The notes: generated by a model not told the origin, from the letters alone. A DNA stretch of 64,000 nt from an uncultured Bacilli bacterium (GCA_944363565.1 CALVUI010000001.1:494350-558349); one strand, 5' to 3'. Counted from the stretch's first letter, positions 19,293 to 56,863 are shown. Made by a program: numbers and translations.

Positions 19293-20199
19293 CGGCTTTA
19301 TCGTTGGGGTAAAACTGGGGCGTTTTCACGACTTTAATATCCCCGGTTCGCATATATTCGACGTAATCGTTCACGAGCATGGATATGGCGTAAGAAATCT
19401 GAAATTTCTTTCCGTCTACCAAGACGTTGTAATTTAGGAGATTGACCATTCCCCTCCTCAATTCGCCGCTTAGGGGGATTTCTATTCCGGCCAGGTTATT
19501 GTAGACGTAGTAGTCTACGACCTGACGGAACGGCTCGACCAAATCGCATGAGAGATTGTTGGCGTTTTTCATGTTGGCGTGCCAGATGCCGAGGCAATCG
19601 TTAAGACCATTGAAGGCAACGCTGCGAATGACGGCACCCGTCAAAACCATGTAGCCGTAATTCAGCGCGGATGAAACCGGCGAGCTGCCGAAACGGATGA
19701 AATCGGGACCGAATAAGCATCGGAAATATTCCCTGGCCGCCTGACCTTCCATGTTTTTCTCGTCACCGAATTTGACTTCTCCCCGATAGGATTTCAAGCG
19801 ATCATAAACGGTAGGATCGTTCACCGTGTTTTCTATTACCGCCATTTGGTTGGCGATTTTTTGACGGATGATGATTTCCCAAACCTTGTTTTTCTTGCTG
19901 GGGAGCATCTTGATTTGACGATCCAACATTTCCGATTGCAAATAATGGCCGTTTATCGGTGCCACGACGGAGGCAGGAACGTAGTCGGAACCGCAGAAGA
20001 CGATGGAAGCTCCGTATTTTCTAAGTTCGCACAATAGACGTGCGGTGACAATGGAATTGGGATCCTCGACGAAAATCAAATCCAAGTCTTCCAGCGGAAA
20101 ACTCAGTGGCCGTTCGGAGTCATCCTTCTTGATTATGACGTTGTTGTCGCAAAGAGAAAGTTTGGCAGCGGACTGGACATAAAGCTGTCGAAATCCCAT
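19282..20199 (-). CDS. cas1: CRISPR-associated endonuclease Cas1 (type II)
   Basis: 305 aa with type II Cas1-like sequence (MGFRQLYVQSAAKLSL...). Lies directly after cas9 (1-nt gap). Confidence 0.92.
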   Translation of the reverse strand: MGFRQLYVQSAAKLSLCDNNVIIKKDDSERPLSFPLEDLDLIFVEDPNSIVTARLLCELRKYGASIVFCGSDYVPASVVAPINGHYLQSEMLDRQIKMLPSKKNKVWEIIIRQKIANQMAVIENTVNDPTVYDRLKSYRGEVKFGDEKNMEGQAAREYFRCLFGPDFIRFGSSPVSSALNYGYMVLTGAVIRSVAFNGLNDCLGIWHANMKNANNLSCDLVEPFRQVVDYYVYNNLAGIEIPLSGELRRGMVNLLNYNVLVDGKKFQISYAISMLVNDYVEYMRTGDIKVVKTPQFYPNDKADVF

Positions 20200-24312: not shown

Positions 24313-24633
24313 ATGGACGCCAAAACGAAAGAAAGAATCCGCCGCTTCAGCATCGACCGGGACTATGACCAGTTCCACTGCCCCGCCAACCTCGCCAAGT
24401 CGATTGCCATCGAAGCGGCCGAACTTTTGGAATGCTTCCAGTGGGACGATGCCCACTACGACGTGGAAGCCGTGAAGGAAGAACTAGCGGACGTCTTGGT
24501 CTATGCCCAGAACCTCATCGAGAAGCTCGGCCTTGATGAGGACGAGATAATCAACGCCAAGATGGACAAGAACGAAGCCAAGTATCCGGTTGCGAAAGCC
24601 AAGGGGCGTTCGACCAAGTACGACAAGCTATGA
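24313..24633 (+). CDS. MazG-like all-alpha nucleoside triphosphate pyrophosphohydrolase
   Basis: Start trimmed to ATG 24313 (MDAKTKERI). Motifs AIEAAELLECFQW and ELADVLVYAQNL (EExxE / ExxD type). The stop overlaps the next start (ATGA). Confidence 0.8.
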   Translation: MDAKTKERIRRFSIDRDYDQFHCPANLAKSIAIEAAELLECFQWDDAHYDVEAVKEELADVLVYAQNLIEKLGLDEDEIINAKMDKNEAKYPVAKAKGRSTKYDKL

Positions 24634-42735: not shown

Positions 42736-43473
42736 ATGGGGATCGGTGAAAAAGTCTATATCCTGAGAAGAGCCAAGCGTTTGACCCAGGAACAACTGGC
42801 CGAAATGCTTTCGATTTCCCGCCAATCGGTCAGCCAATGGGAATCGGGCCAGGTCAAAGATATCAAAAAGGAAAACATCGAGGCCTTGGCCAAGATCTTC
42901 GGGGTCACCACCAGTCTTCTTTACGACGACGCGATCAAGCTAAACGAAGATGGGACCCCGATTTATGAAAAGACCAAGGCCGCTGGACCTTATGGCAACT
43001 ATGTCTATGACATTTATTGCCTGGTTAGGCGGAAACTATCGCTTTTTAACACCGCCTTGTTGTTTCTTGAGTTCTTTATCTTGGTCGGCACTTCCTCTTG
43101 CTTAACGGCCAAAGCCTTTCTGAACCCCGTGCCCCTCTACCTCGCCCTTGCCCCCATTGTTTGGCTTTTGTCCGCCGCTATGCTCTATTTAATTCTCAAA
43201 ACTTTTCTTTCCTATCAAAAAGTGAAGATCGGCTTCATGACTCCGGACCAGTTTCATATGGCATGCTTCGACGGAAAGAGCTCATGGGATTTCGATCTCC
43301 CCTTCGATGACATTCTTGCCATCGAGATCTCCGGGCGAAGAAAGGACCGGGGCAGGATCGGCATCCGCCCCAAGGACGGGGGAAGACCATACGGGTTCAG
43401 TGCCCTCATCTACCGCCCGATGGATTTAAGGAAGGCCTTCGAGGATTTCAAGAGGATGAAGGAAGAACAATAA
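42736..43473 (+). CDS. XRE-family HTH protein with two TM helices and a C-terminal PH-like domain
   Basis: 245 aa. HTH LRRAKRLTQEQLAEMLSISRQSVSQWESG. Two hydrophobic helices. Same architecture as 55675..56454. Confidence 0.8.
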   Translation: MGIGEKVYILRRAKRLTQEQLAEMLSISRQSVSQWESGQVKDIKKENIEALAKIFGVTTSLLYDDAIKLNEDGTPIYEKTKAAGPYGNYVYDIYCLVRRKLSLFNTALLFLEFFILVGTSSCLTAKAFLNPVPLYLALAPIVWLLSAAMLYLILKTFLSYQKVKIGFMTPDQFHMACFDGKSSWDFDLPFDDILAIEISGRRKDRGRIGIRPKDGGRPYGFSALIYRPMDLRKAFEDFKRMKEEQ

Positions 43474-43745
43474 ACTGGGAGTTTAGATTTTGCCCCCGCC
43501 CATTTTGCCCGATAAGAGGGCATTTTTTATTATGAATAAATCAACTTACGGTTGAGCCTTTTGTCCGGAAAAGCCCGATGGTTACTAATTTGCAAGCCTC
43601 GCTTGCGAAAGTTCCAAGCCCCGCTTGCTTGCCTCTAAGTTTACCCCCGCCTTACTTTTGGGTCGCCAGGAAGCGGGAACGGAGACGAGACTCCCATCTC
43701 CCGAACCGCGGACTGGCAGTCCATATAAAAAAGGAGGAATTACCC

Positions 43746-45536
43746 ATGGACCAGCCACAAACGCTCGGGAATAGAATCAGAAAGATCCGAACCGAGGCCG
43801 GCCTCACCCAAAAAGAAGTGGCCGCAGCCGTCGGCGTGACCGAGCAAGCCATCAGCAAATGGGAAGCCGACCTCGGCCGCCCCTCACTGCTAAAAAGCCC
43901 CGCCCTCGCCAAGGCCCTCGGCGTGAGCCTCGACTGTCTTTTAACCGGAAAAAAGAAAGCGGGCCCCTGCCCGATGTCGACTTATGAGTACGCCTGCTAC
44001 AGCAACGACGCTTCAGTCATCAAAAACATCTCCTTCTACAAAGAGGACGAGTTCGGGAAAACCCTTCTCGACTACATCATCGAATACGACGCCTTGGAAG
44101 TCTTCGAACATCTCTTATCGGCCTATACACCCTCATTCCCCTCATCAAGGCGGTATCAACCCTTGGACCAACGAATCCTGGAATTGCTTTTCAGGACCCA
44201 AACCATCAAGAAAGTCTATAAGTTCAATTGCCGCGACATGGGGACTTGGACCCTCTCGTCCTATCCCAAAGGTGACGAAGGCGGAGGGCGAAACGCGGTC
44301 TTGGAAAAGTTGATGCAACCGATGTACTTCCCGGCCAAAAACTTCACCTGGCTTTTGACGGCCCACGCCCGGGACTTCGTGGACTCCGAAGGGAAAACCG
44401 TGCCCTTCAACTACGAGTACGCCACCTACCAAACAATGTATCCCCTCTACGCCCAAGCCGCGATGTATGCCAGAAACGAGGAGATGGCCGAACTGATCAT
44501 CAAAACCATCGAAGATGTAAACGCCCAAGCCAAGGAAGAAGCCAAACGGAGCGAAAACTTGCTTCTCACGACCGAGATCCGTTACAAGCATGACCGTTAC
44601 ATAAGTGGTGCGGGGTATCCGTATTATTCTTATATCAGATGCATCGGCATCCCAAAAAACGTCTACGAGGCCGCGATCGCCAATGGCTACCCAGCTTTCG
44701 CCAGACGCCTCGACGCCATCAACAAAGCGGTCGGCAAAGAAGGCTTTGACCTCCGGGAAGCCGAACTCCTCGAGATGAGAAAGGATGGGAAAAACAGTGA
44801 GGACGAGATCCTCCTAGCTTCTTACACCCGGGACGGGATCTTCGAGATCAAAAGGTTCATGGACGATAAGAAAGGTACCAAGGCCTTGCTCGAAAAAGCC
44901 CTGAAACTCCCCCTATTGAGGTTCGAGAAATTCTCCTCGTTATTGAAGAACCGGAACTACCGGAAGGCCTTCGAAATGACGGTCGATGATGAGTTCCCGA
45001 CCCGGCACAATATGATCAAGGGAAAGACCGGGCCGTCCGTCCTCCTCTCCTTCATGGATTACGCAAAGGAAAAACCAAGTCCAGTCGAGAAGACGAACCT
45101 CGATTACATCAAATCCGTCCTCGGGAGGCAGCCTTACGCAAACGTAAAGGAAATGCTTTCCCTCTTCCGGACGGAAATCCTCAAGAAGGCGAAGATCGAA
45201 GAAGACACGAAGGAAGCCATCAAAGACTTCTCGAGCGAAGCCTTGACGCGGGAACTGGAAAAAGGCCGATACCGCCACTTGGCGGCCGACCTCATCACCA
45301 AGCTCGAATTCCTCCTGAGGGCCAAGGCCGAGATCGAAGGCCAGGAAGACGAAGAGTTCGACCTCGTGCAAGCCATCGACAAATACTGCGGCCCCGGGGA
45401 GCAAGAGCTACTGCACAAGATCAGGACCTACCGCAACCAAAAAGTCCATTTACTCCAAAAACCATCCATCAACATCAACGAAGACGATTTCAAGGAGGCC
45501 ATCCGAATCGTCGCCAAACTGGCAAAGGAAAACTGA
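43746..45536 (+). CDS. XRE-HTH protein with large helical middle region and C-terminal HEPN-like (Rx4H) motif
   Basis: Start trimmed to ATG 43746 after AAAAAGGAGGA. HTH IRKIRTEAGLTQKEVAAAVGVTEQAISKWE. C-terminal LLHKIRTYRNQKVHLL contains R-x4-H. Confidence 0.8.
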   Translation: MDQPQTLGNRIRKIRTEAGLTQKEVAAAVGVTEQAISKWEADLGRPSLLKSPALAKALGVSLDCLLTGKKKAGPCPMSTYEYACYSNDASVIKNISFYKEDEFGKTLLDYIIEYDALEVFEHLLSAYTPSFPSSRRYQPLDQRILELLFRTQTIKKVYKFNCRDMGTWTLSSYPKGDEGGGRNAVLEKLMQPMYFPAKNFTWLLTAHARDFVDSEGKTVPFNYEYATYQTMYPLYAQAAMYARNEEMAELIIKTIEDVNAQAKEEAKRSENLLLTTEIRYKHDRYISGAGYPYYSYIRCIGIPKNVYEAAIANGYPAFARRLDAINKAVGKEGFDLREAELLEMRKDGKNSEDEILLASYTRDGIFEIKRFMDDKKGTKALLEKALKLPLLRFEKFSSLLKNRNYRKAFEMTVDDEFPTRHNMIKGKTGPSVLLSFMDYAKEKPSPVEKTNLDYIKSVLGRQPYANVKEMLSLFRTEILKKAKIEEDTKEAIKDFSSEALTRELEKGRYRHLAADLITKLEFLLRAKAEIEGQEDEEFDLVQAIDKYCGPGEQELLHKIRTYRNQKVHLLQKPSININEDDFKEAIRIVAKLAKEN

Positions 45537-45537
45537 A

Positions 45538-46299
45538 ATGAACAAGTACCAGAAGAGCCTATTCCACCTGAATGTTTATTGCGCCAAGGCCAAAAATCAA
45601 CTGAACTACATCAATACCGAGGACGATTACGTGCAGCTAACACAAAACCCGGATCTCTCGATCGACGATTACCAAATCGACTTAATCACCGGTGTTGAGG
45701 GAACCACCGTCGCCAACCTCGAATGGGTCATCGACGGAAAGAAACTCCGGGCCGAACCAATCATGGAAACATTGTCCTATATGAGGGGAATCCGCGCCCA
45801 CTGCCTCTCGCCCGTCTTTTCCTTCCGGGACGAAAAGAAACGACCGAGCGCCGTCATCCTCTACGCCATCAACGACCTGACCGAACCCCTTACCGTCTCC
45901 TTCAAATACGTCAACGGGAACGACGAAGCCTATGCTAAAAAAGTAGCGGAGGAAAAGAAACGGAGGGACAAAGAAGCCATCGGCCTCTTCGTCAAAACCG
46001 GACAGGACGTCATCAATGTCTTCTTCAAATTAGCTTCCGAGGAAGTCACGGAGTCCATCGTCAAGGTCGAAGCCGTCATCCAAATGGGCCATAACCTCTA
46101 CCAGAACTTCCCGGTAGAAGAAAATAGGCTTAAAAGCGCGGTGACCTTTGCCTCTTACAAAGACCTGGCCTATGGGAATTACCTCATCACCGTCAAACAG
46201 CTTTCCAAGGACGGAAAGACCGTCGCCGAAACCAGCATAACTACTAAAATCGAGCCTGAGCACCACGGTCCGGTAAGACCTTGCAACATCATCGGCTGA
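45538..46299 (+). CDS. Hypothetical protein, tightly coupled to the HTH-HEPN-like gene
   Basis: 253-aa ORF starting 1 nt after the upstream stop. No recognisable motif. Confidence 0.65.
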   Translation: MNKYQKSLFHLNVYCAKAKNQLNYINTEDDYVQLTQNPDLSIDDYQIDLITGVEGTTVANLEWVIDGKKLRAEPIMETLSYMRGIRAHCLSPVFSFRDEKKRPSAVILYAINDLTEPLTVSFKYVNGNDEAYAKKVAEEKKRRDKEAIGLFVKTGQDVINVFFKLASEEVTESIVKVEAVIQMGHNLYQNFPVEENRLKSAVTFASYKDLAYGNYLITVKQLSKDGKTVAETSITTKIEPEHHGPVRPCNIIG

Positions 46300-46404: not shown

Positions 46405-46956
46405 GTTTGCATCCTTCGAAGGGCGGTCATCTTTAATGGTGGTAACCCGGGGACGAAGAAGTCGCTTCTGAATGGGTAGATCGGATGGGCCGTACAGACA
46501 ATCGGGCCTTTACGAAGTGAATATTGTGTCCTTCAGCTTTTCAAAGATCTTGACGTCGTCGAGGTCGTTTTCTTCCCCGGTCTTGCATTCAATAAGAGAC
46601 AATCTAGGGTCGCATCAGATCACTAAATCTGTCTCTCTACCGTCTTGAAATCTTCGGTCTAATTACAAAATTGAGTTTAGGGAATTGAAATTCCTTTTTA
46701 CGAAAGTACATATTCAAAATCCCTTAACTAAATCAATGCGTAAACTACCCCTACCTCTATTACTAGAGAGGTGCCTTTCTCCAGTTATGAGAATTCGAAT
46801 CAAAATTCCGGGAATATACCCAATGAAAGAAAAATGTCTGCCCCCTATTCGGAGTAGCAGACATCAATGCCTTTGTGCCTCCCAACTACGCTTTTGATAC
46901 AATGCACCCCCTAAGGATTTTACACAGCGTAAAAACAGGGCCTAAATAATCAGATT

Positions 46957-47608
46957 TTATCGATATTTTCCGAAGTATTTCTCTTCGCCAGCCTTTCTGG
47001 CATTGATGGCTTCCCTTTTTGTCTTAAACCTTCCCAGCAAGTGCATCTTTCGCTGGAACATCAGCTGGGCTACCCATAGTCCTCGCTGCCTATCGAAATA
47101 GACTCCTCTGACGCCCGACGTGTTGTTACTGTTGAGCTTCCTGTCGGCCTGAATTCCACACTTCATCGTACCATCAACCAGTCCCCTATCAAGGTTTTGG
47201 AGGTTTGCCCTATTCTCATCGTTCTTGCAGCCACAGAAATGGTCTCTCCAGTGGTAAGCTGTGAAGTAGAAACATAGCAGATATTTCCACACTCACATTG
47301 ACACTTCCAATAGTTCTTTCTGTTCTTGGTATAGGCAAACTCAAGGACGTTCAACCTACCGATCTTCTGACCCGTGAGATCTCTTCTCCTAAATCTCCTG
47401 CAGCCACAGGATTTGACGTGTCCGGTATGGAGCTTGTTAATGTTTACCTCTACTATCTTTCCGAAAACGCAACGGCACTTGTAAATCTTGGTGGAATGGT
47501 ATTTCCTTCAGGTGTCCTTGAAAAGGTCAATTATCCATATTTCTTTCCAATTTTATTGTTCATTAATGTATTGCATCCACCGGTTATAAACATTGCCGAT
47601 GACTTCAT
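46957..47608 (-). pseudogene. Decayed phage-type DNA-binding protein (two W.C.C.CG...SCGC modules + AP2-like domain) with frameshifts and a stop
   Basis: ORFs 47163..47354 and 46957..47292 join only by a 1-nt shift at ~47230 (LTTGETIS / CGCKNDEN). An upstream module YKCRCVFGKIVEVNINKLHTGHVKSCGC follows an in-frame TGA. A further shift separates the MNNKIGKKYG start (47563). AP2-like GVRGVYFDRQRGLWVAQLMFQRKMHLLGRFKTKREAINA. Confidence 0.65.
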
Positions 47609-47748
47609 TGAATAATTTGAAAGAGCACTTGGATTGTCTTCTCAGCATGCACGTTCGAACAGAAAAAAATATTCCGAAAAAGAGAGGCAAGACGTTTTGT
47701 GCTTAAAGTGCATCAAAAATGGTTTTGTCGTTTCTTTAAGTCAATTAG

Positions 47749-48036
47749 TTAAGACCGCCATAGATTCCCGTGCGCGTAAACCTCGAGGTTTCTCATGGAC
47801 AGCTTTTCGTCCTCGCCATCGCTGCGCCTCTCGTAGACCTCGCCATCGACTGAGTAGTATTTGGTCGAATTATCGGATATCGAAATATAAAGGTTGCGCT
47901 TAGGGGCACAGCCCCGGTTTGCCTTGAGATCGTTGTTGTTGATGATTTCTAGATAGCCATAGTCAGAATCATAGTAAGGCAAGAACAGGTTGAAAACTTC
48001 CAAGTCAGCCTCGACATGGATATTGATGTTGAGCAC
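47749..48036 (-). CDS. Small hypothetical protein at the distal end of the giant-protein operon
   Basis: 95-aa ORF with GTG start. The frame is open back into the 3' end of the upstream gene. No motif. Confidence 0.4.
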   Translation of the reverse strand: MLNINIHVEADLEVFNLFLPYYDSDYGYLEIINNNDLKANRGCAPKRNLYISISDNSTKYYSVDGEVYERRSDGEDEKLSMRNLEVYAHGNLWRS

Positions 48037-48112
48037 GGTGCCCTCTTCGAAGTAGGAAGGGCATGCTATGGCGAAATTGATGTCGAAGCGGCGGCGCTCA
48101 TGATATGACGAT

Positions 48113-48898
48113 TCAACTTGAATAAAGGTTTAATCGAGCATGTTGCTTTTTATAGTAGTCGTTTTTCTTCATGATGCCTTTGATCATCGTGCAATCAACG
48201 CCATTGTCCTCAAACTGCTTCTGCAACGCGGAAATATCCTTTGGCAAACAATGTCCACCATAACCTCTATTGTCGGGATAGACGAAGGTATGGCTCTTGC
48301 CTATGCGAGGATCGGCCACCCAAATTTCCCTTGCTTGCTCATAATCAACTCCAAGCTTTTCGCAAAGGTCATATATCTCATTCACAAAGGTTACTTTTGC
48401 GGCGAAAAACGAGTTCTCCATGTATTTTGCCATCTCCGCTTCGGACTCCCCAACCTGATGGATTTCAACATTAGAAGTCATGACGGTTTGATAAGCCTGC
48501 ACCGCTAAGGCAACGTCTTTGGCCGAGCCTCCAAAAGACAGCCATTGCCTTGTGGACAAATCCGCGAATGGGTGCGCTACAGTCTCGCCGTAATATTCCG
48601 GCTGGAAGACGATTCTTTTGTTATATTTATCCTTCATCGCCTTGGTGAAGCCGACCCATACTGTCGAACGGATGACCATCAGTCTGGCTTTGCACCAAGA
48701 GATGACCTCTTCCACGGCCGAGGCGTCGCATGAGCCATCCTCCGCCATCGGGGTTGGCACGCAAATGAAAGCCACATCGCACTGATTGATTTCCTCTTTC
48801 GTGCCTTCGTTCTTGTAAGGGTCATAAACACAGGCGGACTTGAATAGATTCTCCATCGCCCCACCGACGTGTCCGTCGCCGATAATTCCGATTTTCAT
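48113..48898 (-). CDS. Short UDP-glucose/GDP-mannose-dehydrogenase-family protein (NAD-binding + central domains only)
   Basis: 261 aa. Rossmann MKIGIIGDGHVGGAM. Catalytic-Cys motif GGHCLPKD. Lacks the usual C-terminal UDP-binding domain. 4-nt overlap with the upstream gene. Confidence 0.8.
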   Translation of the reverse strand: MKIGIIGDGHVGGAMENLFKSACVYDPYKNEGTKEEINQCDVAFICVPTPMAEDGSCDASAVEEVISWCKARLMVIRSTVWVGFTKAMKDKYNKRIVFQPEYYGETVAHPFADLSTRQWLSFGGSAKDVALAVQAYQTVMTSNVEIHQVGESEAEMAKYMENSFFAAKVTFVNEIYDLCEKLGVDYEQAREIWVADPRIGKSHTFVYPDNRGYGGHCLPKDISALQKQFEDNGVDCTMIKGIMKKNDYYKKQHARLNLYSS

Positions 48899-49758
48899 AA
48901 ATTGCCTCCTTGGATTTTGCCAATATCAATCTCTGATTCATAACTTGCCGTAATGCTTTTCTCAAATGAGAAATAAGGCATCGGGCGATTGTGATGGCGG
49001 TCGCTGCCAATCGTCTCAAATAGGCCATACTGCTTTGCCAATGCCCTCAATAGATCCACGCCTCCGGCCTCAAAATTGGATGAATGGAAGCACTCCAGGC
49101 CATCAAGACCATAAGCAACGAGTTTTGTGAGAATTGCTTTCACGTCATCTTCGTTGAATTTGTAATGATGCTCCCCGCGGAATGGATGAGCCCAAGTCGC
49201 GAAGCCGCCCGCTTTATGTATCAAATCGATTGTTTCCTTTGGGCCAAGGCAATGCAATGCGAAGCCATCACTGATCTCGGGGCTCCTGAAGAATTCCTTG
49301 GCAGCCCCGACATCGATGAAATGGCCTTTCTCAACCAAGCAAGCAATGAGCCTTTGCTTTGTAAGGCCGCTTAGTGAGAGGTCGTTGAAGCGCTTGGCGA
49401 TATATTCGCCCCTCGCCCTTTTTATTTTGGCGTTCTCGGAGCCGTTTTTGACATCCTGCATAACGGATTCGATTAAGTCGCCATCTTTATATGCATGAGC
49501 CAGGATGTGGATCTTCGCGCCTTTGGGAAATCCAAGCCCCTCTTCCGCCAAACTCGCTCCAAGTTCAGCGCCTTTGATGTAAGCAAAGCCCATGGCCACC
49601 GCCTTTTTTTCGAAGAGGTCTTCGTCTTTTGTGGTGTCGTGATTCGTGATAGAGAGGGTTCTGATGCCGCCTTCTTTGGCTCTAAGCAGCAACTCGTCGA
49701 TGGATTGGGTAGCGCAGGTCGAGTAAGGCGCGCAATGACAATGTAAATCGATGTTCAT
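48895..49758 (-). CDS. PHP-domain metal-dependent phosphoesterase
   Basis: 287 aa. MNIDLHCHCAPYS (PHP His motif), ITNHDT and WAHP motifs. 4-nt overlap with the giant gene. Confidence 0.8.
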   Translation of the reverse strand: MNIDLHCHCAPYSTCATQSIDELLLRAKEGGIRTLSITNHDTTKDEDLFEKKAVAMGFAYIKGAELGASLAEEGLGFPKGAKIHILAHAYKDGDLIESVMQDVKNGSENAKIKRARGEYIAKRFNDLSLSGLTKQRLIACLVEKGHFIDVGAAKEFFRSPEISDGFALHCLGPKETIDLIHKAGGFATWAHPFRGEHHYKFNEDDVKAILTKLVAYGLDGLECFHSSNFEAGGVDLLRALAKQYGLFETIGSDRHHNRPMPYFSFEKSITASYESEIDIGKIQGGNL

Positions 49759-52700
49759 TTCTTTTTCCTCTTTATTCCTTGGTATTCCTTCGTGTAGCGT
49801 TCTCTGTATGCTTTGATAACCGCCAAGGCTTCGTCGACCGTCCTCGCGCCGAAGACCTTATCTTCCGGAATGTCTTTATAGCGTTTGCGGTCGTCGATTC
49901 TCGTATTGGCGACTTTACCGCTCCAGCCACTGACGCCTTCGAAGGCAATGATGAGCTTGTAGGTTTCCCAGGCAACGGCGATTTCCTCCAGCGTTCCGCT
50001 GCCACCGCCAATGGCGATGACGGCAGAGGCATCCACGACAAGCTCCGCTCGTTTATGGTCCATTCCCGTAGCGACTTTAAGATCGCCATAGATGTTCCCT
50101 TCGCTTTCATCGCTACCAGGAAGGATCGAGATGGTATCCCCAAACTCGTATTCTTTGGCGTCATGGGCGCCTCTTGAAGAGGCTTCCATCACGCCGTCCA
50201 TCCCGCCGTTTTGGAGGCGATACCCGTTTTCGATCAGAGCTTTGCCCATCTCGCGGGCTATCTTGTATCTAGGATCGTCTTCCTTTATTCCGGCATCGCC
50301 GATGATGGCGACAATCGGTTTCTTTGACATTGCCTTCGCTTTTTCTAGGAGCATCGCTTTAACCTTTCCTTTCTTGTTGATTTCATATTGTTTAGTCCTC
50401 GTTTTGTTTTCCTCGGACGGATCAAAGAAATAGATGACCTCGTCAATGAATTTAGGGTGCCTGGCCGCCTCAACCATCGGCAGCATCATCGCATAGTCAG
50501 TAGCCACTTCAATGTAGCCGCCTTGCGGATCCTTTAGGTTGTTTCCGATATAGCCCGCAAGATATCTCCTAAAGCATTTGGGATGGCACCAGATGTTGTC
50601 TCCGCCCCTATCCCACGCCGAGCGGAACGATTCAAGCGCATATCTCCTCAAAGGCTTATCAAACCTCAGGCAATTGCCGACGGTGAGATCCGCCCCTTCG
50701 TCAAAACTATTCTTTATTGTGGGCAATGCGCTTTCCCCAATCAAAGCGTCATCCCCATCCACGTTCACGATGATTGCATTGGGGTTAATAGCCATCGAAA
50801 GCATTCTCTCGAAATTAGCCAAAGAAGACACCCTGCGCGCATTGGAAACGAGCGTAGACTTTCCTTTGAGCACTGGGTCGTAAGTCAATTTCATCCGAAG
50901 ATATTCGGCGTTTTTGCTCGCTGAGAAATCATCAAAATAAATGAAATGGAAACCTTCGTTTTGGGCTGAAATCGAATCGAGAAGACGCTTGGACCTCTCC
51001 AGCTCAACGTTCCGGCCGCGAGAGAAAACAATCAGGCCGTCTTCGATCTGAGGAAGCCAATCCTTTTCTTCCCCCACGACATCCACAGAGCTATATTGCG
51101 CAGCCGGGATCTTCTTTGCGTTCAGCACCGCGGATATGAGGTTCGGGTTTTTCTTCGTGCCATTTGGGAAATGGACGAAGCCAAAGCCCTTGTGATGAAA
51201 TCGAATGCTTTTATTGGTATCAATAGCGGCATCCAGAGTTCGATGCCATGGCAAGGCGAACTTCCCATCCTTGATTGGGTTTTGAATCGGGAGACGGCTT
51301 TCCAAAGTTTCGAGGTCTATGAAGCAAGAACGCACCTCAACCCGTTTTCCAAATTCCGTTTTGCCTTCATCCAGATGAAGAACGCTAGCCGTTCCGACGA
51401 TCGCCTGGGATTTGCTAAAACGCGCAAACTCTTCGTAGAATTCATCGTGATCGTTTCCAAAATAGGCGATATCCACGTCGGTTTGGAAGACGTAGCGCGT
51501 CTTAATCGCGTCAAAGCCTTTAAGTGTAGTCAGCAATTGCTGCCCGTTCTCGGCATAGGCTTCCGTGCAGCTCTTTCCAAAGTATTTGCGGTAAGTCTCG
51601 AATCCCTCGGCGTTATCGCAAGATACAATCCGATCGATGAGCCCTTCCTTGCTCAATGACTCCAAACGGCTTTTAAGCGCAGCTTCGTCATCTTCTTGGT
51701 AAGCCCGGTTGCGATTCGTCCTCTTCCCGTCCACCACAACAATTCGCTCGGCGAAGCAGGCTCCGTTTTCGAGTTTGAGTATCATCGAACGTATAAAAGG
51801 ATCAACGACCTCATGATCCATCGCACAGCATTTTATTAGGAGCGAGCAGTCCGAAAGCACGTGCGCTTCTTTCTTCTTCAAATCGAATATCAGGTGTTCA
51901 CCAATTGAATTGAGGCTATCAACATCCACGCCATCGTCTTCTTGAACGGACACAATCTCAAAGCCATTTCGGCGGAAGAGGTTTTCGTAAAACCCGAAGC
52001 TCTTGTGATAATCCTTATGGATACCTAAAGGCGTTGCCTTGCCATAAAGGGCCTCGGACTCATATTGGCCAGAATAACCGCTTTGGCGCGTCTCGGTGCG
52101 CTGGACGTCATCGAAGAACATATCGCACACGCTGATGATGGCATGCCCATCTTCGTGCAGGAGACGGTGGATGTTTCTGACGATTTTTTCATCCCACGCA
52201 GAATCCGTCGCACAAAGGACGAGATTGCAGGTAATCAAATCGTAAGTAGCATGCTCCTCTTCGATGTTTTCTATGATTCTGACGTCATGATTCGCCCTAG
52301 ATCTCACAATCGACGAGTCGATATCGAATGCCGCCTTTGTTTTGGCGTGGGCGACATTGATGATTTTGCATTTCCCCGCCCCGTAATCGAGGAGGCTGTC
52401 AGGATGGTATTCAGCAATCCGCTTAAGCACATAGCCATCATGAATGCTTTCCTTGGAACGGATCTCGATTAGTTTTTTGAAGTTTTCGATGCCAAAGCAA
52501 AGTGGGCCGTCTTCCCCAAGATGCGACATGGCCACCACTTTCTTGTATTCGGGGACGGTGAGGTTCGGGTAACGGATCATCTCATATGCCCGCTTGACCT
52601 CTGCTTCGTAGTTTGCATCCGTCAAAGGCACGATGTCCTTGCCATAATCTACAAATCGAAGCGCCCCATTGACGATAAGGAAGTTGTCGCGCTTGATGTT

Positions 52701-55091
52701 TTTTAGAACCAAGCCGCGCTTTCGTAGGAATCGTATCAGCCGAGCAATCTCGATCGCATGGCCGGATTCGTATGTCTCGACCGCCTCCGGACACTCATAG
52801 GCGATCGCCGTGTGGCCATATTCCTTGATGACCTTAATCGGGAACAGCTGGTCTGATTTGCCAAACTCCTGGCCATATTTTTCGAGGATTGAGGTATCGA
52901 AATCATCGTAGAAAACCTTGATGACTTCTTTCCCTTTTCGGAATACCGCACCCTCATTTCCCATTCCCAAAAGCGCAGGCAGCGACAATCCGTTGTCTTT
53001 GGCGAGTTTCAGGAACTTCCTTGATGCCAGATATTTGATTTCCATCGACCGGACGAACTCATACGAGGCGATGACCGTTGATTCGTCTAGAAATGCCAAA
53101 GCCTTCCTCACTAGGTTTTTGACGTCGCTTTCGCCAAAGGGTTGGGCGCGGCCAAGAATCTGAAACAAGCCTAAGTCGCGATAAAGCGAATCGATGAGCC
53201 TGACCAACCTCTTTTTGAATTCGGCCGTGAAGTTCTTAAGATACCCTTCTCTGCTCTTCGTCGTGGGGTTTTCCATTGCCTTGGTGAAGCTAGAGCCCAA
53301 TAGGTCCTTTAGGGATTTCTCCGTCTCCCGTCTCATGTCAAACTCCTGGATGGGGCGATCGTGCAATGTGGCGAAGCTCGAGCCCAGCACTTTGTAGCCA
53401 AGGCTCTTGAGCATCTGCACCCAAAAATAATCGCTTCTCCTGGCTATGGTGTTGTTAAAAACGGCGGACAGGTTAGGGACATCCAAAGCATCGCGATTGA
53501 AAATCAGCGTATTGCCACCTCTAGAATAAGGCTCAAACACACTTTCTTCGCCTACAAAGAGTTTGCGGGAGACCCCCTTCCCGGAAAGGATTTCCTCTAA
53601 AGTTTCGCCTTTTCCGATTGGCAACGGGCATTCCAACGCCGTGTGGTCTTCGGAAAGGTCATAGTAATAGTCGCGTTTGCCATAGCAGGAAGTCTGATAT
53701 AAGCCGGATTTGTTTAGCTTTTCGGCATATACGTAATCCACCAAGGAAGTCCGCAAAACAGATAGGGTTGGCAAAGGGGCATCGCCCGAATAGGAACCTA
53801 CCACCACATCGGCTTTCCCAAAGAAATGAGAAGTAACCGCCTTTATATCCAGCGGAATGGTTTTGAAAGCCCCGTTTTCTCGGACGACGCTCATCAAGCG
53901 CATGTCGTCATCGAACACCCAAATGGCATCCCCGTCCTTTGAGTTTTCCTTCAAATAATAATGGAGGATCATCCGCGAACAGGCGATATCCTCGATATGG
54001 CTCCCGCGAATAAGGCTTGGCCGAATATAGTCGGCGTAAGGCATTTTGCCAAGATCTGATTTCGCTTCATTCAAGGAAAAGAGAAGGCCGAGCCGCTCAA
54101 CCCGCTTCCGATATTCGGCGCCGGGATTTTCTCCGTTGAAGAACACAACTACTTTCAAATCTTCGATATTTTGGCTATCAATATCGTCCAGCAAACGGGA
54201 AGACAAGGCTTCATCGGAGGTTATGAACCCGATGACCAGGCGGCCGCCGAACGGTGAATCAGAATATGGTTTGTACGGTTCCCCTTGATATTGCGGGATT
54301 TGATTTGCAACTTCGTCTTTGCTGAGATCCGTGTAACGGAGAGCCCGCTTGAAGAAAGCTTCCTCGATGTTCTCATCCATGATGCCGGCGTACTTAGAAT
54401 AGAAATATGCCAGGCTCTTTTTCTTTCCGGATGAGCTGTTGGTAAGCCTTGGGCGGTCATCGTGGGCATCAACGTCCAATAACGGGTGGGGAATGTAGGC
54501 GACCTTTGGATTGAGCATCATCACGCGGGTAAAGAAATCGCGGTCGGTCGTGCTGGATATCCCTTCATCGAAAGCGCCAGCCATCAAAAGGGTCTTCAAG
54601 CGGATGAAGGTGTTCGATCCTTGAACGTGTGGATTGACCGCCAAAAAGCTCTTCTGGTTGAGTTCCTCGGGCAGGTCTAGGATGAAGTCTTTGCCATCGG
54701 CTAGGTAGTGGATGAGCCCCACCACCATATCGACATCTGGCTTCAATTCGGCGACGCATCTTTCCAAGTAGTCCGCGTGCCAAGCATCGTCGTCATCAAG
54801 GAAGGCAAGATAGGTTTCTTCGTAGGAAAACGTTTTATCCCCGAGATGCTCCTCAAGAAGGTAGTCGATGGCGGTATTCAGGTTCCCACCATAGTTATGC
54901 GCATATTTGTTTCGAATCAGGGTAGCTTTCCCCTTTAGGAATGCCTTTTCCGATTCGAAGTTTTCTTCTATTGAATCGCTAGAGACGATGATTTCGCACG
55001 CCTTCACAGTCTGGCTCAATGCCGAAAGGACCGCGTTCTCCAATAGCTTAGGGCGATCCCTGGTAGCGATTATTGCGATGACTCTCTTCAT
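49755..55091 (-). CDS. Giant 1778-aa multidomain protein: GT-A / GT-A-like / kinase-like / SAM-methyltransferase / GT-A-like / GT-A / SLOG(LOG,TIGR00725)-like
   Basis: Start trimmed to ATG 55089-55091 after GGGAGAG. Motifs, in ORF-track numbering: GT2 IAIIATRDRP...FLDDDD (41-139); VFDDDM (429-434); kinase-like GMGNEGAVF / VIKVF / LKNIKRDNFLI / VDYG (746-854); MTase motif I LLDYGAGKC (937-945); IVVVDG...QTDVDI (1154-1245); GT2 IVFSRGRN...VNVDGDD (1391-1485); C-terminal IIGDAG...NGGMDGVMEA...IGGGSGTLEE (1633-1740). Confidence 0.85.
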   Translation of the reverse strand: MKRVIAIIATRDRPKLLENAVLSALSQTVKACEIIVSSDSIEENFESEKAFLKGKATLIRNKYAHNYGGNLNTAIDYLLEEHLGDKTFSYEETYLAFLDDDDAWHADYLERCVAELKPDVDMVVGLIHYLADGKDFILDLPEELNQKSFLAVNPHVQGSNTFIRLKTLLMAGAFDEGISSTTDRDFFTRVMMLNPKVAYIPHPLLDVDAHDDRPRLTNSSSGKKKSLAYFYSKYAGIMDENIEEAFFKRALRYTDLSKDEVANQIPQYQGEPYKPYSDSPFGGRLVIGFITSDEALSSRLLDDIDSQNIEDLKVVVFFNGENPGAEYRKRVERLGLLFSLNEAKSDLGKMPYADYIRPSLIRGSHIEDIACSRMILHYYLKENSKDGDAIWVFDDDMRLMSVVRENGAFKTIPLDIKAVTSHFFGKADVVVGSYSGDAPLPTLSVLRTSLVDYVYAEKLNKSGLYQTSCYGKRDYYYDLSEDHTALECPLPIGKGETLEEILSGKGVSRKLFVGEESVFEPYSRGGNTLIFNRDALDVPNLSAVFNNTIARRSDYFWVQMLKSLGYKVLGSSFATLHDRPIQEFDMRRETEKSLKDLLGSSFTKAMENPTTKSREGYLKNFTAEFKKRLVRLIDSLYRDLGLFQILGRAQPFGESDVKNLVRKALAFLDESTVIASYEFVRSMEIKYLASRKFLKLAKDNGLSLPALLGMGNEGAVFRKGKEVIKVFYDDFDTSILEKYGQEFGKSDQLFPIKVIKEYGHTAIAYECPEAVETYESGHAIEIARLIRFLRKRGLVLKNIKRDNFLIVNGALRFVDYGKDIVPLTDANYEAEVKRAYEMIRYPNLTVPEYKKVVAMSHLGEDGPLCFGIENFKKLIEIRSKESIHDGYVLKRIAEYHPDSLLDYGAGKCKIINVAHAKTKAAFDIDSSIVRSRANHDVRIIENIEEEHATYDLITCNLVLCATDSAWDEKIVRNIHRLLHEDGHAIISVCDMFFDDVQRTETRQSGYSGQYESEALYGKATPLGIHKDYHKSFGFYENLFRRNGFEIVSVQEDDGVDVDSLNSIGEHLIFDLKKKEAHVLSDCSLLIKCCAMDHEVVDPFIRSMILKLENGACFAERIVVVDGKRTNRNRAYQEDDEAALKSRLESLSKEGLIDRIVSCDNAEGFETYRKYFGKSCTEAYAENGQQLLTTLKGFDAIKTRYVFQTDVDIAYFGNDHDEFYEEFARFSKSQAIVGTASVLHLDEGKTEFGKRVEVRSCFIDLETLESRLPIQNPIKDGKFALPWHRTLDAAIDTNKSIRFHHKGFGFVHFPNGTKKNPNLISAVLNAKKIPAAQYSSVDVVGEEKDWLPQIEDGLIVFSRGRNVELERSKRLLDSISAQNEGFHFIYFDDFSASKNAEYLRMKLTYDPVLKGKSTLVSNARRVSSLANFERMLSMAINPNAIIVNVDGDDALIGESALPTIKNSFDEGADLTVGNCLRFDKPLRRYALESFRSAWDRGGDNIWCHPKCFRRYLAGYIGNNLKDPQGGYIEVATDYAMMLPMVEAARHPKFIDEVIYFFDPSEENKTRTKQYEINKKGKVKAMLLEKAKAMSKKPIVAIIGDAGIKEDDPRYKIAREMGKALIENGYRLQNGGMDGVMEASSRGAHDAKEYEFGDTISILPGSDESEGNIYGDLKVATGMDHKRAELVVDASAVIAIGGGSGTLEEIAVAWETYKLIIAFEGVSGWSGKVANTRIDDRKRYKDIPEDKVFGARTVDEALAVIKAYRERYTKEYQGIKRKKK

Positions 55092-55103
55092 ATTTCTCTC
55101 CCA

Positions 55104-55143
55104 AGAGAAGAAAGGCGACCGACGGGTTCTTCCGCTGGTCGCC
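55104..55143 (-). terminator. Hairpin plus U-rich tract just upstream of the giant gene (terminator of the 150-aa gene or attenuator)
   Basis: GGCGACC/GGTCGCC stem (55114-20/55137-43) with a 16-nt loop. On the minus strand it is followed by UUUCUUCUCUU, which runs into the RBS of the giant ORF. Confidence 0.35.
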
Positions 55144-55241
55144 TGCTTTCGCAATCTAACCAGATGGAAGCAACCCTGAGGGCGCCTGGGCGATCTATTC
55201 AATCTACCTCAGGCGTTTCAGCTTTCATCTACTTTTTTGTT

Positions 55242-55694
55242 TTAATCCAATCCTGCCTCCGATTCCAAACTCAGATCCCAGTAGGAGGCATCCTCCTTGG
55301 CATACTCCAAAATCGAATCGATCTTCTCTTTGGCTTTCTTTAAGCGATAGGCAAGGATATCTCTTTTGGAATGTTTGATATGTTGATCGGAGATGGCGTC
55401 TTCTTTTTCGGCCCTCTCCATGATCTCTGGGCTAAGATCCTGCTCTTGCCTGCTCGAGCATTTGAGATAAGGATCCTCATTATTGATTTTTTGAAGGATC
55501 TGATATTCCTCAAAATCGATTTCACGGCATTCCAAAACGGCATCTTTCTTATGGTGTTTAACCCTTGGAAGCCAGCGGGCAGCTAAAGTAGCCTCATGGG
55601 CGTTCTCTGCCATGATTGGGAAATCGATGCGGATGAATCTGTCGAGGCCAACATGGCCACATTTGCAAGTAACTCTATAGAGTTTTGATTCCAT
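55242..55694 (-). CDS. Hypothetical Cys/His-containing small protein
   Basis: Start trimmed to ATG 55692-55694 (MESKLYRVTCKCGHVGLDRFIRIDFPIMAENAHEATLAARWLPRVKHHKKD). Overlaps the XRE gene 3' end by 20 nt. Confidence 0.6.
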   Translation of the reverse strand: MESKLYRVTCKCGHVGLDRFIRIDFPIMAENAHEATLAARWLPRVKHHKKDAVLECREIDFEEYQILQKINNEDPYLKCSSRQEQDLSPEIMERAEKEDAISDQHIKHSKRDILAYRLKKAKEKIDSILEYAKEDASYWDLSLESEAGLD

Positions 55695-56454
55695 CGGGAT
55701 TTTCGATGAAATCGCGGAGACCAGCCCAGTATTGAAGCAGTTTCTCTGGCTGAACAATGTAGGGATAGCGGATTGGCTTTGCTCTGCCTAAGACAAAGAT
55801 GCCAACTTCGTTTTCCTTCGCATCTGTAATTTCGACTTTTTCGATTTTATCAAGCGGAATATAAATCGTTCCGTCGCCAATATTGCCTGTGTTCAGTCTC
55901 AAAGCCCGGTCATCCAAAACGCCAACATAGACTCGTTCATGCCTATTGATAAAGGTTAGCATCAAGAACAATATGAAAAGGGATAGGCCCATCATAATTA
56001 AGACGATGCCTGCGACAAGCATGAAATCATTGTGTTTTTGTTCAACTGTTGCCCATAGTGCAAGGATAACAGCTCCTACTACACCGACGGCAATGGCAAT
56101 CAATGATTTTATGATGGAGCGTTTTATCTCCTTCTTTTTAAGAAGTTTTTGATAAATGTGATATTTCGTTGTGGAAAATATGTTCTTGCGAACCGCAAAA
56201 CCTTCTTTATTCAAGATCGCTGCCAAGGTCGCCGAGTCATTTAGGTCTAGGCCTTCGTCTAGCAGGGCGTCAAAGGATACATTGAAGATTTTCGCAAGCG
56301 TGCGAATGTTGTCTAACGTCGGTTCGGTGTCACCATTCTCCCATTTTGAGATTGATTGGCGGCTGATTCCGCTTTCAGACAAAGCATAGCCCAATTGTTC
56401 CTGTGACATCCCGCGCGCTTTACGGATAATCCGGATTTTCTCTGCGAGTTTCAT
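55675..56454 (-). CDS. XRE-family HTH protein with two TM helices and a C-terminal PH-like domain
   Basis: 259 aa. HTH IRKARGMSQEQLGYALSESGISRQSISKWENG. Hydrophobic helices IIKSLIAIAVGVVGAVILALW and LVAGIVLIMMGLSLFILFLML. Confidence 0.8.
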   Translation of the reverse strand: MKLAEKIRIIRKARGMSQEQLGYALSESGISRQSISKWENGDTEPTLDNIRTLAKIFNVSFDALLDEGLDLNDSATLAAILNKEGFAVRKNIFSTTKYHIYQKLLKKKEIKRSIIKSLIAIAVGVVGAVILALWATVEQKHNDFMLVAGIVLIMMGLSLFILFLMLTFINRHERVYVGVLDDRALRLNTGNIGDGTIYIPLDKIEKVEITDAKENEVGIFVLGRAKPIRYPYIVQPEKLLQYWAGLRDFIENPDGIKTL

Positions 56455-56743
56455 CTACTTTCCTCCTTTCCGCCAATATTCTCGATTTCATGGGAGTTTT
56501 CGACTACCAACCGAGGATTGGTATTTTGTCAACTCGGAGTTTACATCCGAGGTTTACATGACACTTTTCACATTATATAGCCTTAATAGTTTTCTTCTAA
56601 AAAATATTGAGCCTGCCATGTCGGGATTAAGTCAAAAACCGCGGATCTTCTTACATAAACTGTTCACAGCACTTATAAAAAGCACGCCTCATTGCTTTTT
56701 AAATATTTAAGAGCAAGAGACTTAGGTTATGCCGATTATATAA

Positions 56744-56775
56744 GAAAAAGTCTGCTTGCTCTTTCAAGCAGCAGA
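56744..56775 (-). terminator. Intrinsic terminator after tRNA-Thr
   Basis: ~10-bp stem 56749-56759/56766-56775 with one bulge. On the minus strand it is followed by UUUUU (plus AAAAA 56744-48). Confidence 0.65.
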
Positions 56776-56789
56776 CATTCGTTTCGGGT

Positions 56790-56863
56790 TGGTGCCCCGC
56801 CGCAGAGTCGAACTACGGACTGGTCCTTACCATGGACCCGTTATACCGTTTAACTAGCGGGGC
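56790..56863 (-). tRNA. tRNA-Thr (anticodon GGU), CCA encoded
   Basis: Manual cloverleaf: acceptor GCCCCGC/GCGGGGC, D arm GTTA-AACGGTA-TAAC, anticodon arm GGTCC-ATGGTAA-GGACC, T arm CGTAG-TTCGACT-CTGCG, then ACCA. 74 nt. Confidence 0.9.

Follow-up and report, generated by a model that had tools for sequence, protein, structure and literature searches.

We describe here a mobile locus built around one giant gene, found in a 64,000-nucleotide stretch of the genome of an uncultured Bacilli bacterium (GCA_944363565.1 CALVUI010000001.1:494350-558349; hereafter the window, with positions counted from its first letter). The gene (49755-55091, minus strand) starts at an ATG (MKRVIAII) and codes for a protein of 1778 aa which, with high confidence, has the anatomy of a glycan assembly line; the module that it forms with its partner genes moves horizontally as a unit, as shown by computation. 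In the reading that we favour, this mobile and self-contained locus assembles a glycan in the cytoplasm and serves as a conflict module (anti-phage, broadly understood), outside the host's own capsule, O-antigen or teichoic-acid pathway, and we put the probability of this reading at roughly 0.45. This reading is favoured because export and priming genes are missing from the neighbourhood, because the host range includes wall-less bacteria and archaea, and because the island has passed between very different core genomes. It is also favoured because nucleotide-themed parts (a LOG-like domain, a PHP phosphoesterase resembling RNase AM and pAp-phosphatases, a DEDDh exonuclease and a HEPN-like protein) occur in a defence-island setting. 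The parts are of known kinds, and it is their conserved architecture, partners and setting that are undescribed.

A seven-module enzyme

A first-pass annotation of this DNA, made from the sequence alone, had proposed an open reading frame (ORF) of 1778 aa divided into seven domains. The ORF, its neighbours and every motif cited for it were found as claimed, and profile searches together with Foldseek on AlphaFold2 models confirmed the predicted order: two GT-A glycosyltransferase (GT) modules, a helical spacer, a kinase-like module, an S-adenosylmethionine (SAM)-dependent methyltransferase, two further GT-A modules and a C-terminal LOG/TIGR00725 domain (SLOG). The models of the two halves have a predicted local distance difference test score (pLDDT) of 91.5 and 92.7 and a predicted TM-score of 0.90 each. 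The highest 19-residue Kyte-Doolittle mean is 1.25, indicating a soluble protein with no membrane helix. Conservation was read from an alignment of 40 homologues, 28-57% identical to the window giant, which was also used as a profile. The four DxD-type Asp sets of the GT-A domains, the Gly-loop, K725, N803 and D815/G817 of the kinase-like module and motif I of the methyltransferase are all invariant or nearly so in it. The modules are given below with their minus-strand coordinates.

Module 1 (aa 1-270; 54282-55091) is a GT-A domain of family GT2, matched by PF00535 at aa 7-135 (58.6 bits against a cut-off of 23.3), with an invariant DDDD at 99-102 within the motif FLDDDD (97-102) and Foldseek matches to WrtF, AvpGT, SpsA and TarP. 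Module 2 (aa 283-610; 53262-54245) is a divergent GT-A-like domain recognized from the AlphaFold2 model, which Foldseek aligns over 620-720 columns with the dual-GT-A enzymes PmHS2, K4CP and LARGE1; its invariant D394 and D396 (VFDDDM, 392-397) follow a beta-strand. In the C-terminal half, module 5 (aa 1076-1345; 51057-51866) is GT-A-like by its model and by Foldseek matches to K4CP and LARGE1, with D1205 and D1207 invariant (QTDVDI, 1203-1208). Module 6 (aa 1346-1585; 50337-51056) contains a second PF00535 stretch and is GT-A/GT2-like: D1445, D1447 and D1448 are invariant (VNVDGDD, 1442-1448), Foldseek returns TarS, RmlT and CgT, and a second GT2-type profile match, to PDB 5hea, lies at profile positions 1382-1426. 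For both halves, PmHS2 (1e-14), K4CP (1e-12 to 1e-16) and LARGE1 rank first in the PDB, followed by the single-domain GT-A enzymes WrtF, AvpGT, SpsA, TarP, TarS and RmlT, and the C-terminal half also retrieves SAM methyltransferases and the TIGR00725 structure 1rcu.

The spacer after the first GT pair comprises four long helices (aa 611-700; 52992-53261; DSSP on the AlphaFold2 model, pLDDT mostly >87). It leads to module 3 (aa 701-880; 52452-52991), a protein-kinase-like ATP-binding module identified by profile comparison with the PDB: a kinase-only profile finds CDKL5 (E 8.5e-8) and TTK (E 1e-6), and the full 40-member profile places a kinase match at aa ~709-833 (TTK, E 1.5e-5). Conserved residues are G709/G711/G714 of the Gly-loop (GMGNEGAVF, 709-717), K725 (VIKVF, 723-727), N803 (NIKRDN, 798-803) and D815-x-G817 (VDYG, 814-817). 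The kinase fold of the first-pass annotation is thereby supported by the profiles, but its 'catalytic KRDN' is not the His-Arg-Asp (HRD) motif of kinases, and the position of the HRD Asp is taken by Asn798 in at least 90% of the family (profile consensus 'vltNikkeN' aligned with kinase 'vhrDikpeN'). This replacement implies an atypical kinase, a pseudokinase or an activity other than standard phosphotransfer. The module forms a family of its own, with only 160 representatives among 1.84 billion matching at E<=1e-3, nearly all of them at position ~700-1000 of proteins 1100-2100 aa long. It is followed by module 4 (aa 881-1075; 51867-52451), a class I SAM-dependent methyltransferase (PF13489 at aa 896-1048, 33.5 bits against a cut-off of 27), which has motif I LLDYGAGKC (900-908), invariant D902, G904 and D923, a profile match to PDB 3g5l (E 2e-10) and Foldseek matches to 3g5l and 3e8s.

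Module 7 (aa 1586-1778; 49758-50336) is a LOG-like Rossmann domain of SLOG cluster 4/TIGR00725. PF18306 matches aa 1592-1726 with 95.9 bits (E 2.4e-27, cut-off 26.3), and TIGR00725 itself barely passes its cut-off (107.7 against 106.9 bits). The domain matches PDB 1rcu (E 6e-19, Foldseek TM 0.83), as well as molybdenum cofactor (Moco) carrier proteins and LOG enzymes. Besides NGGMDG (1628-1633), it keeps GGGSGTLEE (1695-1703) and an upstream Arg, which align with the Glu and Arg of the LOG motif. Its scores are under the cut-offs of the LOG phosphoribohydrolase models (TIGR00730, 35.6 against 96.35; CtkRMPhLog, 21.6 against 300).

Partner enzymes in the window

Downstream of the giant lie a PHP-family phosphoesterase and a truncated dehydrogenase, and the four-nucleotide overlaps that had been reported between the three genes are indeed ATGA at both junctions. 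The PHP protein, of TrpH/YciV type (287 aa; 48895-49758, minus strand), is recognized by PF02811 (33.9 bits against a cut-off of 26.4) and has an N-terminal H-x-H motif (DLHCHC). It also matches the NCBIfam models for nucleoside bisphosphate phosphatase (E 5e-18) and RNase RNM (E 9e-14), both far under their equivalog cut-offs, and it is most closely related to a 5'-3' exoribonuclease and to 3',5'-bisphosphonucleotide phosphatases (PDB 7ug9, 3e0f).

The second partner (261 aa; 48113-48898, minus strand) is a shortened member of the UDP-glucose dehydrogenase (UGDH) family, which we call mini-UGDH. It matches PF00984 (E 3e-27) and, partially, PF03721 (E 2e-11), has no PF03720 third domain, and scores 154.9 bits with TIGR03026, under the cut-off of 189.8. 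The NAD-binding and central domains and the catalytic-Cys motif GGHCLPKD are retained. As had been proposed, the C-terminal nucleotide-sugar-binding domain is absent, the protein aligning only to residues 74-301 of the 450-aa UGDH 3gg2. Since mini-UGDH has no nucleotide-binding domain of its own, it may oxidize a hexose already held by the giant.

A rare and patchy family with recurrent partners

Homologues of the giant occur in 269 of 185,579 species-representative genomes of bacteria and archaea, a rare and patchy distribution, and 265 relatives were found among the clusters scored. The bacterial hosts include Bacilli, Clostridia, Bacteroidales, Wolinella, Pasteurella multocida, an E. coli-binned metagenome-assembled genome (MAG), Mesomycoplasma, Dehalococcoidia, several proteobacterial classes and Planctomycetes, and the archaeal ones Bathyarchaeia, Thermoplasmata and methanogens. 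The six-module core GT-GT-kinase-methyltransferase-GT-GT is constant, and members are named in databases only 'TIGR00725 family protein' or 'glycosyltransferase'.

Two members deserve a comment. In the wall-less Mollicute Mesomycoplasma neurolyticum (LR214951.1; locus L089, 10001-14744), a 1315-aa member stands with a 264-aa mini-UGDH; translation with table 11 differs from the database protein, presumably because UGA codes for Trp. In the E. coli-binned MAG contig (CAVGNR010000006.1; locus L024, 10001-15324), the giant is split into ORFs of 1253 and 519 aa by a frameshift, a stop or an assembly error. At the DNA level neither the window nor this MAG copy matches any complete E. coli genome, which makes the E. 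coli binning doubtful.

We found no family match in 50,697 phage records by tblastn, and relatives in only four of the 2.9 million contigs of IMG/VR. The IMG/VR contig examined (L094) is an integrative element with restriction-modification (R-M) systems, and a phage gene was accordingly rejected as an explanation. Plasmids carry only partial, distant relatives. One of these (L096, Pseudoalteromonas donghaensis plasmid NZ_CP032092.1, 8986-15508) is a 1116-aa relative of the GT1-GT2 half located among conjugation genes, with GTP cyclohydrolase II-like, asparagine-synthase-related and arylamine N-acetyltransferase genes downstream and a DGQHR-domain gene nearby, which looks like a different, nucleotide-themed partner set.

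In a census of 73 species-level loci, the most frequent partner is SLOG (49 loci), fused to the giant in 11 and encoded by a separate adjacent gene in 38, so that it is missing in about a third. Mini-UGDH follows with 30 loci, where it is downstream, upstream or N-terminally fused. Less frequent are an NAD epimerase/dehydratase (9 loci), a PHP or histidine phosphatase (8), a radical SAM protein (8), an orphan 640-aa protein that we call c7 (6), an APH-like small protein assigned by motif only (5), a DEDDh exonuclease (4) and a CE4 polysaccharide deacetylase (3, fused every time). Conservation of the two partners seen in the window is uneven: mini-UGDH is recurrent, whereas PHP adjoins the giant here and is fused to it in P0031 but is a rare accessory (3/73) that does not define the system.

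Fusions to the giant involve mini-UGDH (L044, L048, P0113 and P0117; at the N-terminus in archaea), the epimerase (L032, L041), radical SAM (L030), PHP (P0031), His_Phos_1 (L065, L069, L071) and CE4 (L059, L073, L083). Such Rosetta-stone relationships, in which an enzyme that is a neighbour in one member is part of the giant in another, imply that the partner enzymes serve one product, and they strengthen the assembly-line interpretation of the first-pass annotation. As a set, the enzymes point to a hetero-glycan that contains uronic acid and N-acetyl-hexosamine and is decorated with phosphate and methyl groups.

The same set of tailoring enzymes (radical SAM, the APH-like putative kinase, CE4, phosphatases, methyltransferase, dehydrogenase and epimerase) is typical of sugar natural products, and raises the alternative of a chemical defence by a small molecule, a diffusible or intracellular compound of glyco-nucleoside or oligosaccharide type. 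The LOG domain would free a base or ribose-5-phosphate, the GT-A modules would couple (uronic) sugars to it, and the kinase-like module, methyltransferase, radical SAM, deacetylase and phosphatase would tailor the result. Hexuronyl-nucleoside antibiotics of the blasticidin S and gougerotin type and the products of viperin may provide analogies. In agreement with this, the radical SAM protein partially matches pVip models (E 4e-10), phosphatases occur only alongside SLOG (8/8 loci), the LOG motif residues are retained, and so compact a module would require no acceptor in the host envelope. However, the grouping of the four GT-A domains into two polymerase-like pairs points to a longer glycan, we found no transporter or self-resistance gene, the pVip match is limited to the generic radical-SAM core, and SLOG is dispensed with in the third of loci mentioned above. 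We consider this alternative unlikely, and retain the conflict module with cytoplasmic glycan chemistry as the preferred reading.

Nuclease-type accessories inside the operon characterize some sub-lineages. The c7 family (46 clusters) occurs only inside the giant module in Clostridia (at L020, 14811-16748, with homologues in L021, L022, L034, L036, L039, L081 and L090). It has no match in Pfam, PADLOC or PDB profiles, and its homologues are all unannotated; the motifs RNxNxH and RNFxxH, among only 38 invariant columns in 24 members, form a motif-based double HEPN-like signature. The DEDDh accessory matches the PADLOC model of CRISPR-associated DEDDh (E 1e-7). These accessories could be explained if the giant glycosylated, phosphorylated and methylated DNA or RNA as a self-mark, while the HEPN-like, DEDDh and exoribonuclease-like PHP proteins cut the unmodified invader in the manner of R-M systems. 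The frequent neighbourhood of R-M, GmrSD and other modification-dependent nucleases, and the partner genes of the Pseudoalteromonas plasmid relative (GTP cyclohydrolase II-like and asparagine-synthase-like, near the DGQHR protein), point in the same direction. Against such hypermodification, scans with Pfam, NCBIfam and PHROG detected no DNA- or RNA-binding domain in the giant, no hydroxymethylase or other maker of a glycosylatable base is present, a nuclease is missing from most of the 73 loci, and phage genomes, in which glycosylated DNA is common, yielded no match to the family. We regard it as very improbable, well behind a conflict module that builds a glycan.

A recently transferred island

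The locus lies on a mobile island of ~10 kb (46876-56863), delimited by blastn against another Bacilli genome (L001) and extending from a tRNA-Thr(GGT) gene (56790-56863, minus strand; ARAGORN, and Rfam tRNA with 53.3 bits) to ~0.9 kb past orf95, a small ORF described below. The island is 97% identical in DNA to positions 8226-18041 of L001. The flanking genes, coding for a MiaB-like radical SAM protein and a GH77 glucanotransferase, are syntenic, and their products are only 50% and 53% identical. The contrast between a 97% identical island and 50-53% identical flanks implies a recent transfer into the same site of distantly related Bacilli. The GC content of the island is 0.476 against 0.544 elsewhere, which agrees with the earlier description of an AT-richer block abutting a tRNA gene. 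We found no integrase on the island itself and no att-type direct repeat of the tRNA at its far border. Beyond that border the cargo differs, consisting of a 652-aa helix-turn-helix (HTH) protein and a 253-aa protein in the window and of a DUF2726 helicase in L001, which is the pattern of a variable hotspot.

Genomic contexts and the envelope alternative

We compared 11 independent homologous neighbourhoods, counting defence-type neighbours within 10 kb. Defence-type or mobile-element genes are present in 8 of the 11 (a raw count). L004 has GmrSD, a serine recombinase, SLFN/AlbA, an N6/N4 methylase, SEFIR/TIR and helicases; L001 an AAA_11/12 helicase with DUF2726, an nSTAND3/Schlafen helicase and SNF2; and L007 a 1216-aa AAA_11/12 protein with kinase and PP2C. 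L009 contains an integrase, transposases and AAA_15/21 with HNH, L086 a type ISP-like R-M enzyme and a Schlafen helicase, and L087 GIY-YIG, GmrSD and a deaminase. In L088 we identified Band-7, an nSTAND3 ATPase, BrxL and TIR, and in L094 an integrase, an antirepressor, the type II R-M system AccI and a ParB-methylase. The proposal that the locus might be a defence module gains support from these contexts, and computation does not separate it from the assembly-line proposal.

A known defence system was rejected as an explanation, as PADLOC-DB v2.0.0 has no match for PHP or mini-UGDH and only a marginal one for the giant. Likewise, we found no paper naming TIGR00725 and none on a GT-kinase-methyltransferase-SLOG protein in defence islands, which is in line with the first-pass annotation, to which no characterized system of such an architecture was known.

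The same neighbourhoods bear on whether the product belongs to the cell envelope. A conventional capsule, O-antigen or teichoic-acid synthase was rejected as the primary reading: next to the module, no gene for a priming transferase, flippase, ABC exporter or ligase was seen in the window or in any of the 11 contexts, and the homologues lie outside capsule and teichoic-acid loci. A subtler version places the giant at the cytoplasmic membrane surface, where it would add a complex, methyl-phosphate-capped side chain to a lipid-linked or polymeric precursor (O-antigen, teichoic acid, capsule or archaeal dolichol-linked N-glycan) that the host then exports, altering surface antigens and masking phage receptors, as can be likened to prophage TarP in Staphylococcus aureus and to O-antigen polymerase-terminator proteins. 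The top Foldseek matches are indeed enzymes of capsule, glycosaminoglycan (GAG), teichoic acid and O-antigen synthesis (PmHS2, K4CP, LARGE1, TarP, TarS, RmlT, WrtF), the UGDH, epimerase and CE4 partners are typical of polysaccharide pathways, and ORF6 of Klebsiella pneumoniae O7 combines comparable modules in one soluble protein (PMC11231755). Moreover, decorating enzymes require no exporter of their own and often ride mobile elements.

However, a near-identical island is found in hosts whose core proteins are only ~50% identical, and the hosts comprise wall-less Mollicutes, archaea, and both diderms and monoderms, for which a common envelope acceptor is unlikely. More generally, a host-specific envelope acceptor would hardly be expected of a family that occurs in archaea, Mollicutes, Dehalococcoidia and Planctomycetes. 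The LOG-like domain, the RNase AM/pAp-phosphatase-type PHP, DEDDh and the HEPN-like accessory are not parts of envelope pathways, and the kinase-like module is not near WbdD, which is outside its best 60 PDB matches. We hold envelope decoration to be the strongest of the alternatives but less likely than the intracellular conflict module, to which we give preference.

Several observations weigh against this preference. Defence neighbours were not seen in the Pasteurella, Mesomycoplasma and L090 contexts, and inference from neighbours is weak where single families are concerned. In PADLOC v2, the one marginal match of the giant concerns its methyltransferase region (mad2, E 0.003). The best structural relatives are all envelope-glycan enzymes, and the fused CE4, UGDH and epimerase are classic parts of polysaccharide pathways. 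Concerning the nucleotide-themed parts, the relatives of TIGR00725 include pure binders such as Moco carriers, which leaves LOG-type catalysis putative, and c7 is assigned to HEPN by its motifs only. Finally, the kinase-like module, devoid of the HRD Asp, may be inactive.

A proposed mechanism and its significance

From family knowledge we infer the following individual steps. Each GT-A site would use a divalent metal to add one sugar from a nucleotide sugar, so that a defined tetrasaccharide or else two alternating co-polymers would result, and mini-UGDH, docked on or fused to the giant, would supply uronic acid. A phosphate (or nucleotidyl) group and a methyl group would come from the kinase-like and methyltransferase pair, and may cap the chain in the way known from K. 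pneumoniae O7 ORF6 and from WbdD. The LOG-like domain may bind or cleave a nucleoside 5'-phosphate, either supplying a primer or acceptor or sensing a nucleotide signal, and PHP would strip phosphate from an intermediate of the LOG site. The membrane-anchored XRE protein encoded at the head of the locus may control the operon. The product would stay inside the cell and hit a universal target (the nucleotide pool, nucleic acid or translation), or could be a small antiviral compound resembling a glyco-nucleoside.

A bolder proposal, which we advance tentatively and with less conviction than the conflict reading in general, is that the giant, SLOG and mini-UGDH form the core of an unrecognized class of prokaryotic immunity. 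A machine controlled or primed by LOG would build a capped uronic-acid glycan on a nucleotide, a nucleic acid or some other target that is universal inside cells, or drain nucleotide sugars, ATP and SAM, and so halt the phage, with HEPN-like and DEDDh nucleases coupled to it in some lineages.

If the locus is an immune system, glycan synthesis joins the known anti-phage chemistries, and both the TIGR00725/SLOG cluster 4 family and a domain-truncated UGDH gain a function. If it is instead a portable decorator of surface glycans, it lets a single gene, able to pass the borders of phyla and domains, make a complex capped heteroglycan, with a bearing on phage host range, on serotype switching in gut bacteria and Pasteurella, and on glyco-engineering. 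Either way, the family is a well-defined, compact and experimentally tractable unit of two to five genes.

Other features of the island and of the window

The mechanical ORF of the giant gene runs further upstream than its ATG, to a TTG at 55202. The gene is preceded by a structured 5' leader (55092-55250, minus strand) with an RNA fold z-score of -4.06, 0 of 200 shuffles folding equally well. Its terminator-like hairpin GGCGACC...GGUCGCC, followed by the U-rich tract UUUCUUCUCUU, lies directly before the ribosome-binding site and may act as an attenuator or else terminate the upstream unit. No Rfam family or riboswitch matched the leader, and a scan for promoters and terminators gave the same counts as in shuffled sequence.

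Upstream of the leader, the operon is headed, as previously noted, by an XRE regulator and a small protein, and neither is conserved in the family. The XRE-family HTH regulator (259 aa; 55675-56454, minus strand; HTH_3, E 9e-16) has C-terminal membrane segments with a Kyte-Doolittle peak of 2.86 at aa 146. Its PADLOC matches are HTH proteins of capH/RmrA type, and it recurs in a single other, distant lineage (L036, upstream of the module; homologue E 2e-44). The small protein (55242-55694, minus strand) has 150 aa if read from the ATG at 55694, a start that is uncertain; in L001 the gene call begins at the Met equivalent to 55613, giving 123 aa. It had been described as a Cys/His protein, but contains only 4 Cys and 6 His in 150 aa. 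It has no Pfam, NCBIfam, PADLOC or PHROG match and recurs in no other lineage of the giant family. Like PHP, both of these proteins at the head of the operon are lineage-specific and lie outside the core.

Downstream of mini-UGDH, orf95 (95 aa; 47749-48036, minus strand) is a small ORF of uncertain coding status that also belongs to the island copy in L001 and has no Pfam or NCBIfam match. The island tail (46876-47700) contains a 111-aa ORF (46957-47292, minus strand) with a weak AP2-domain match. A segment of 159 bp (47237-47395), bounded by the 14-nucleotide direct repeat TCTTGCAGCCACAG / TCCTGCAGCCACAG, is missing in L001. The tail segment may be a remnant of a homing-endonuclease-like or integration gene. 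Between the island and an aldo/keto reductase gene, a low-GC region (42736-46299, plus strand) holds three genes, coding for a 245-aa HTH protein, the 652-aa protein with HTH_3 at aa 67-119 (RmrA/capH-like), and the 253-aa protein, which has no family match and whose gene starts 2 nt after that of the 652-aa protein. The latter two may be another variable cargo or a defence pair.

The window also contains a type II CRISPR-Cas locus, which lies in a second low-GC stretch (GC 0.41-0.46). The array (15724-~17900) has at least 33 copies of the 36-nucleotide repeat GTAGATTAGCAGAACCTTTTAGCAGGGGTCGGAATC with a period of 66, and is adjoined by Cas1 (19282-20199, minus strand) and a 1269-aa Cas9 (HNH_4, RuvC_III; 20201-24010, minus strand). 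Nearby lies a Schlafen group 3 helicase of 622 aa (24630-26498, plus strand; PF09848, E 1e-87); a helicase of the same type is 7.5 kb from the module in L001. We count CRISPR-Cas9 and the Schlafen-type helicase of this genome towards the conflict reading.

Comparison with known systems

Mini-UGDH shares with UGDH, AglM and TuaD the NAD-binding Rossmann domain, the central helical domain and the catalytic Cys motif. It differs in its length of 261 aa, against ~390-450 aa, lacking the whole C-terminal domain and ~40 aa of the N-domain. The LOG/TIGR00725 proteins (Thermotoga TM1055, 1rcu; the Moco carriers 2iz5 and 6y01; cytokinin-activating LOG) have in common with module 7 the fold and GGxGTxxE plus Arg. 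SLOG domains are nucleotide-ligand sensors in defence systems, such as ThsA of Thoeris. In contrast to the SLOG of ThsA type, that of the giant is joined to a glycosyltransferase machine, and not to a SIR2, TIR or membrane effector.

TarP, TarS and RmlT, all among the Foldseek matches of the giant, are GT-A enzymes that likewise act in the cytoplasm, and TarP of S. aureus is carried by a prophage and alters phage susceptibility. They differ in being single GTs of ~300-600 aa with trimerization domains, working only on the poly-ribitol-phosphate of Firmicutes, without kinase, methyltransferase, SLOG or UGDH modules.

The dual-GT-A GAG polymerases (K4CP of E. coli, PmHS2 of Pasteurella and human LARGE1) resemble the giant in their tandem GT-A domains, each with its own DxD site, and their use of UDP-glucuronic acid fits the UGDH partner. 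Sequence identity is only 11-15%, and TM-scores of 0.2-0.33 imply that the orientation of the domains differs. The giant has no capsule export locus, and comprises two such pairs plus three further enzymatic modules.

WbdD-type terminators have a C-terminal coiled-coil ruler with a membrane-binding helix, and are partnered by an ABC transporter with a cap-binding carbohydrate-binding module. In O-antigen polymerase-terminators each linkage has a GT module of its own, and a kinase and a methyltransferase together put on a methyl-phosphate cap; ORF6 of K. pneumoniae O7 is a soluble protein in which two GT2 modules are joined to a coiled coil and a methyltransferase-kinase terminator (PMC11231755). 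The giant shares with this group (O7 ORF6 and O12 WbbB of K. pneumoniae, WbdA and WbdD of E. coli O9a) soluble GT modules linked through a helical spacer to a kinase/methyltransferase pair. Unlike them, it has no Wzm/Wzt transporter, WecA or ligase nearby, and unlike WbdD its kinase-like module lacks the catalytic Asp, WbdD being outside the best 60 PDB matches with both the kinase and the full profile. Its order is GT-GT-kinase-methyltransferase-GT-GT with four GT-A domains, its locus adds a LOG/SLOG domain and a mini-UGDH partner, it resides on mobile and defence islands, and its family reaches archaea and Mollicutes.

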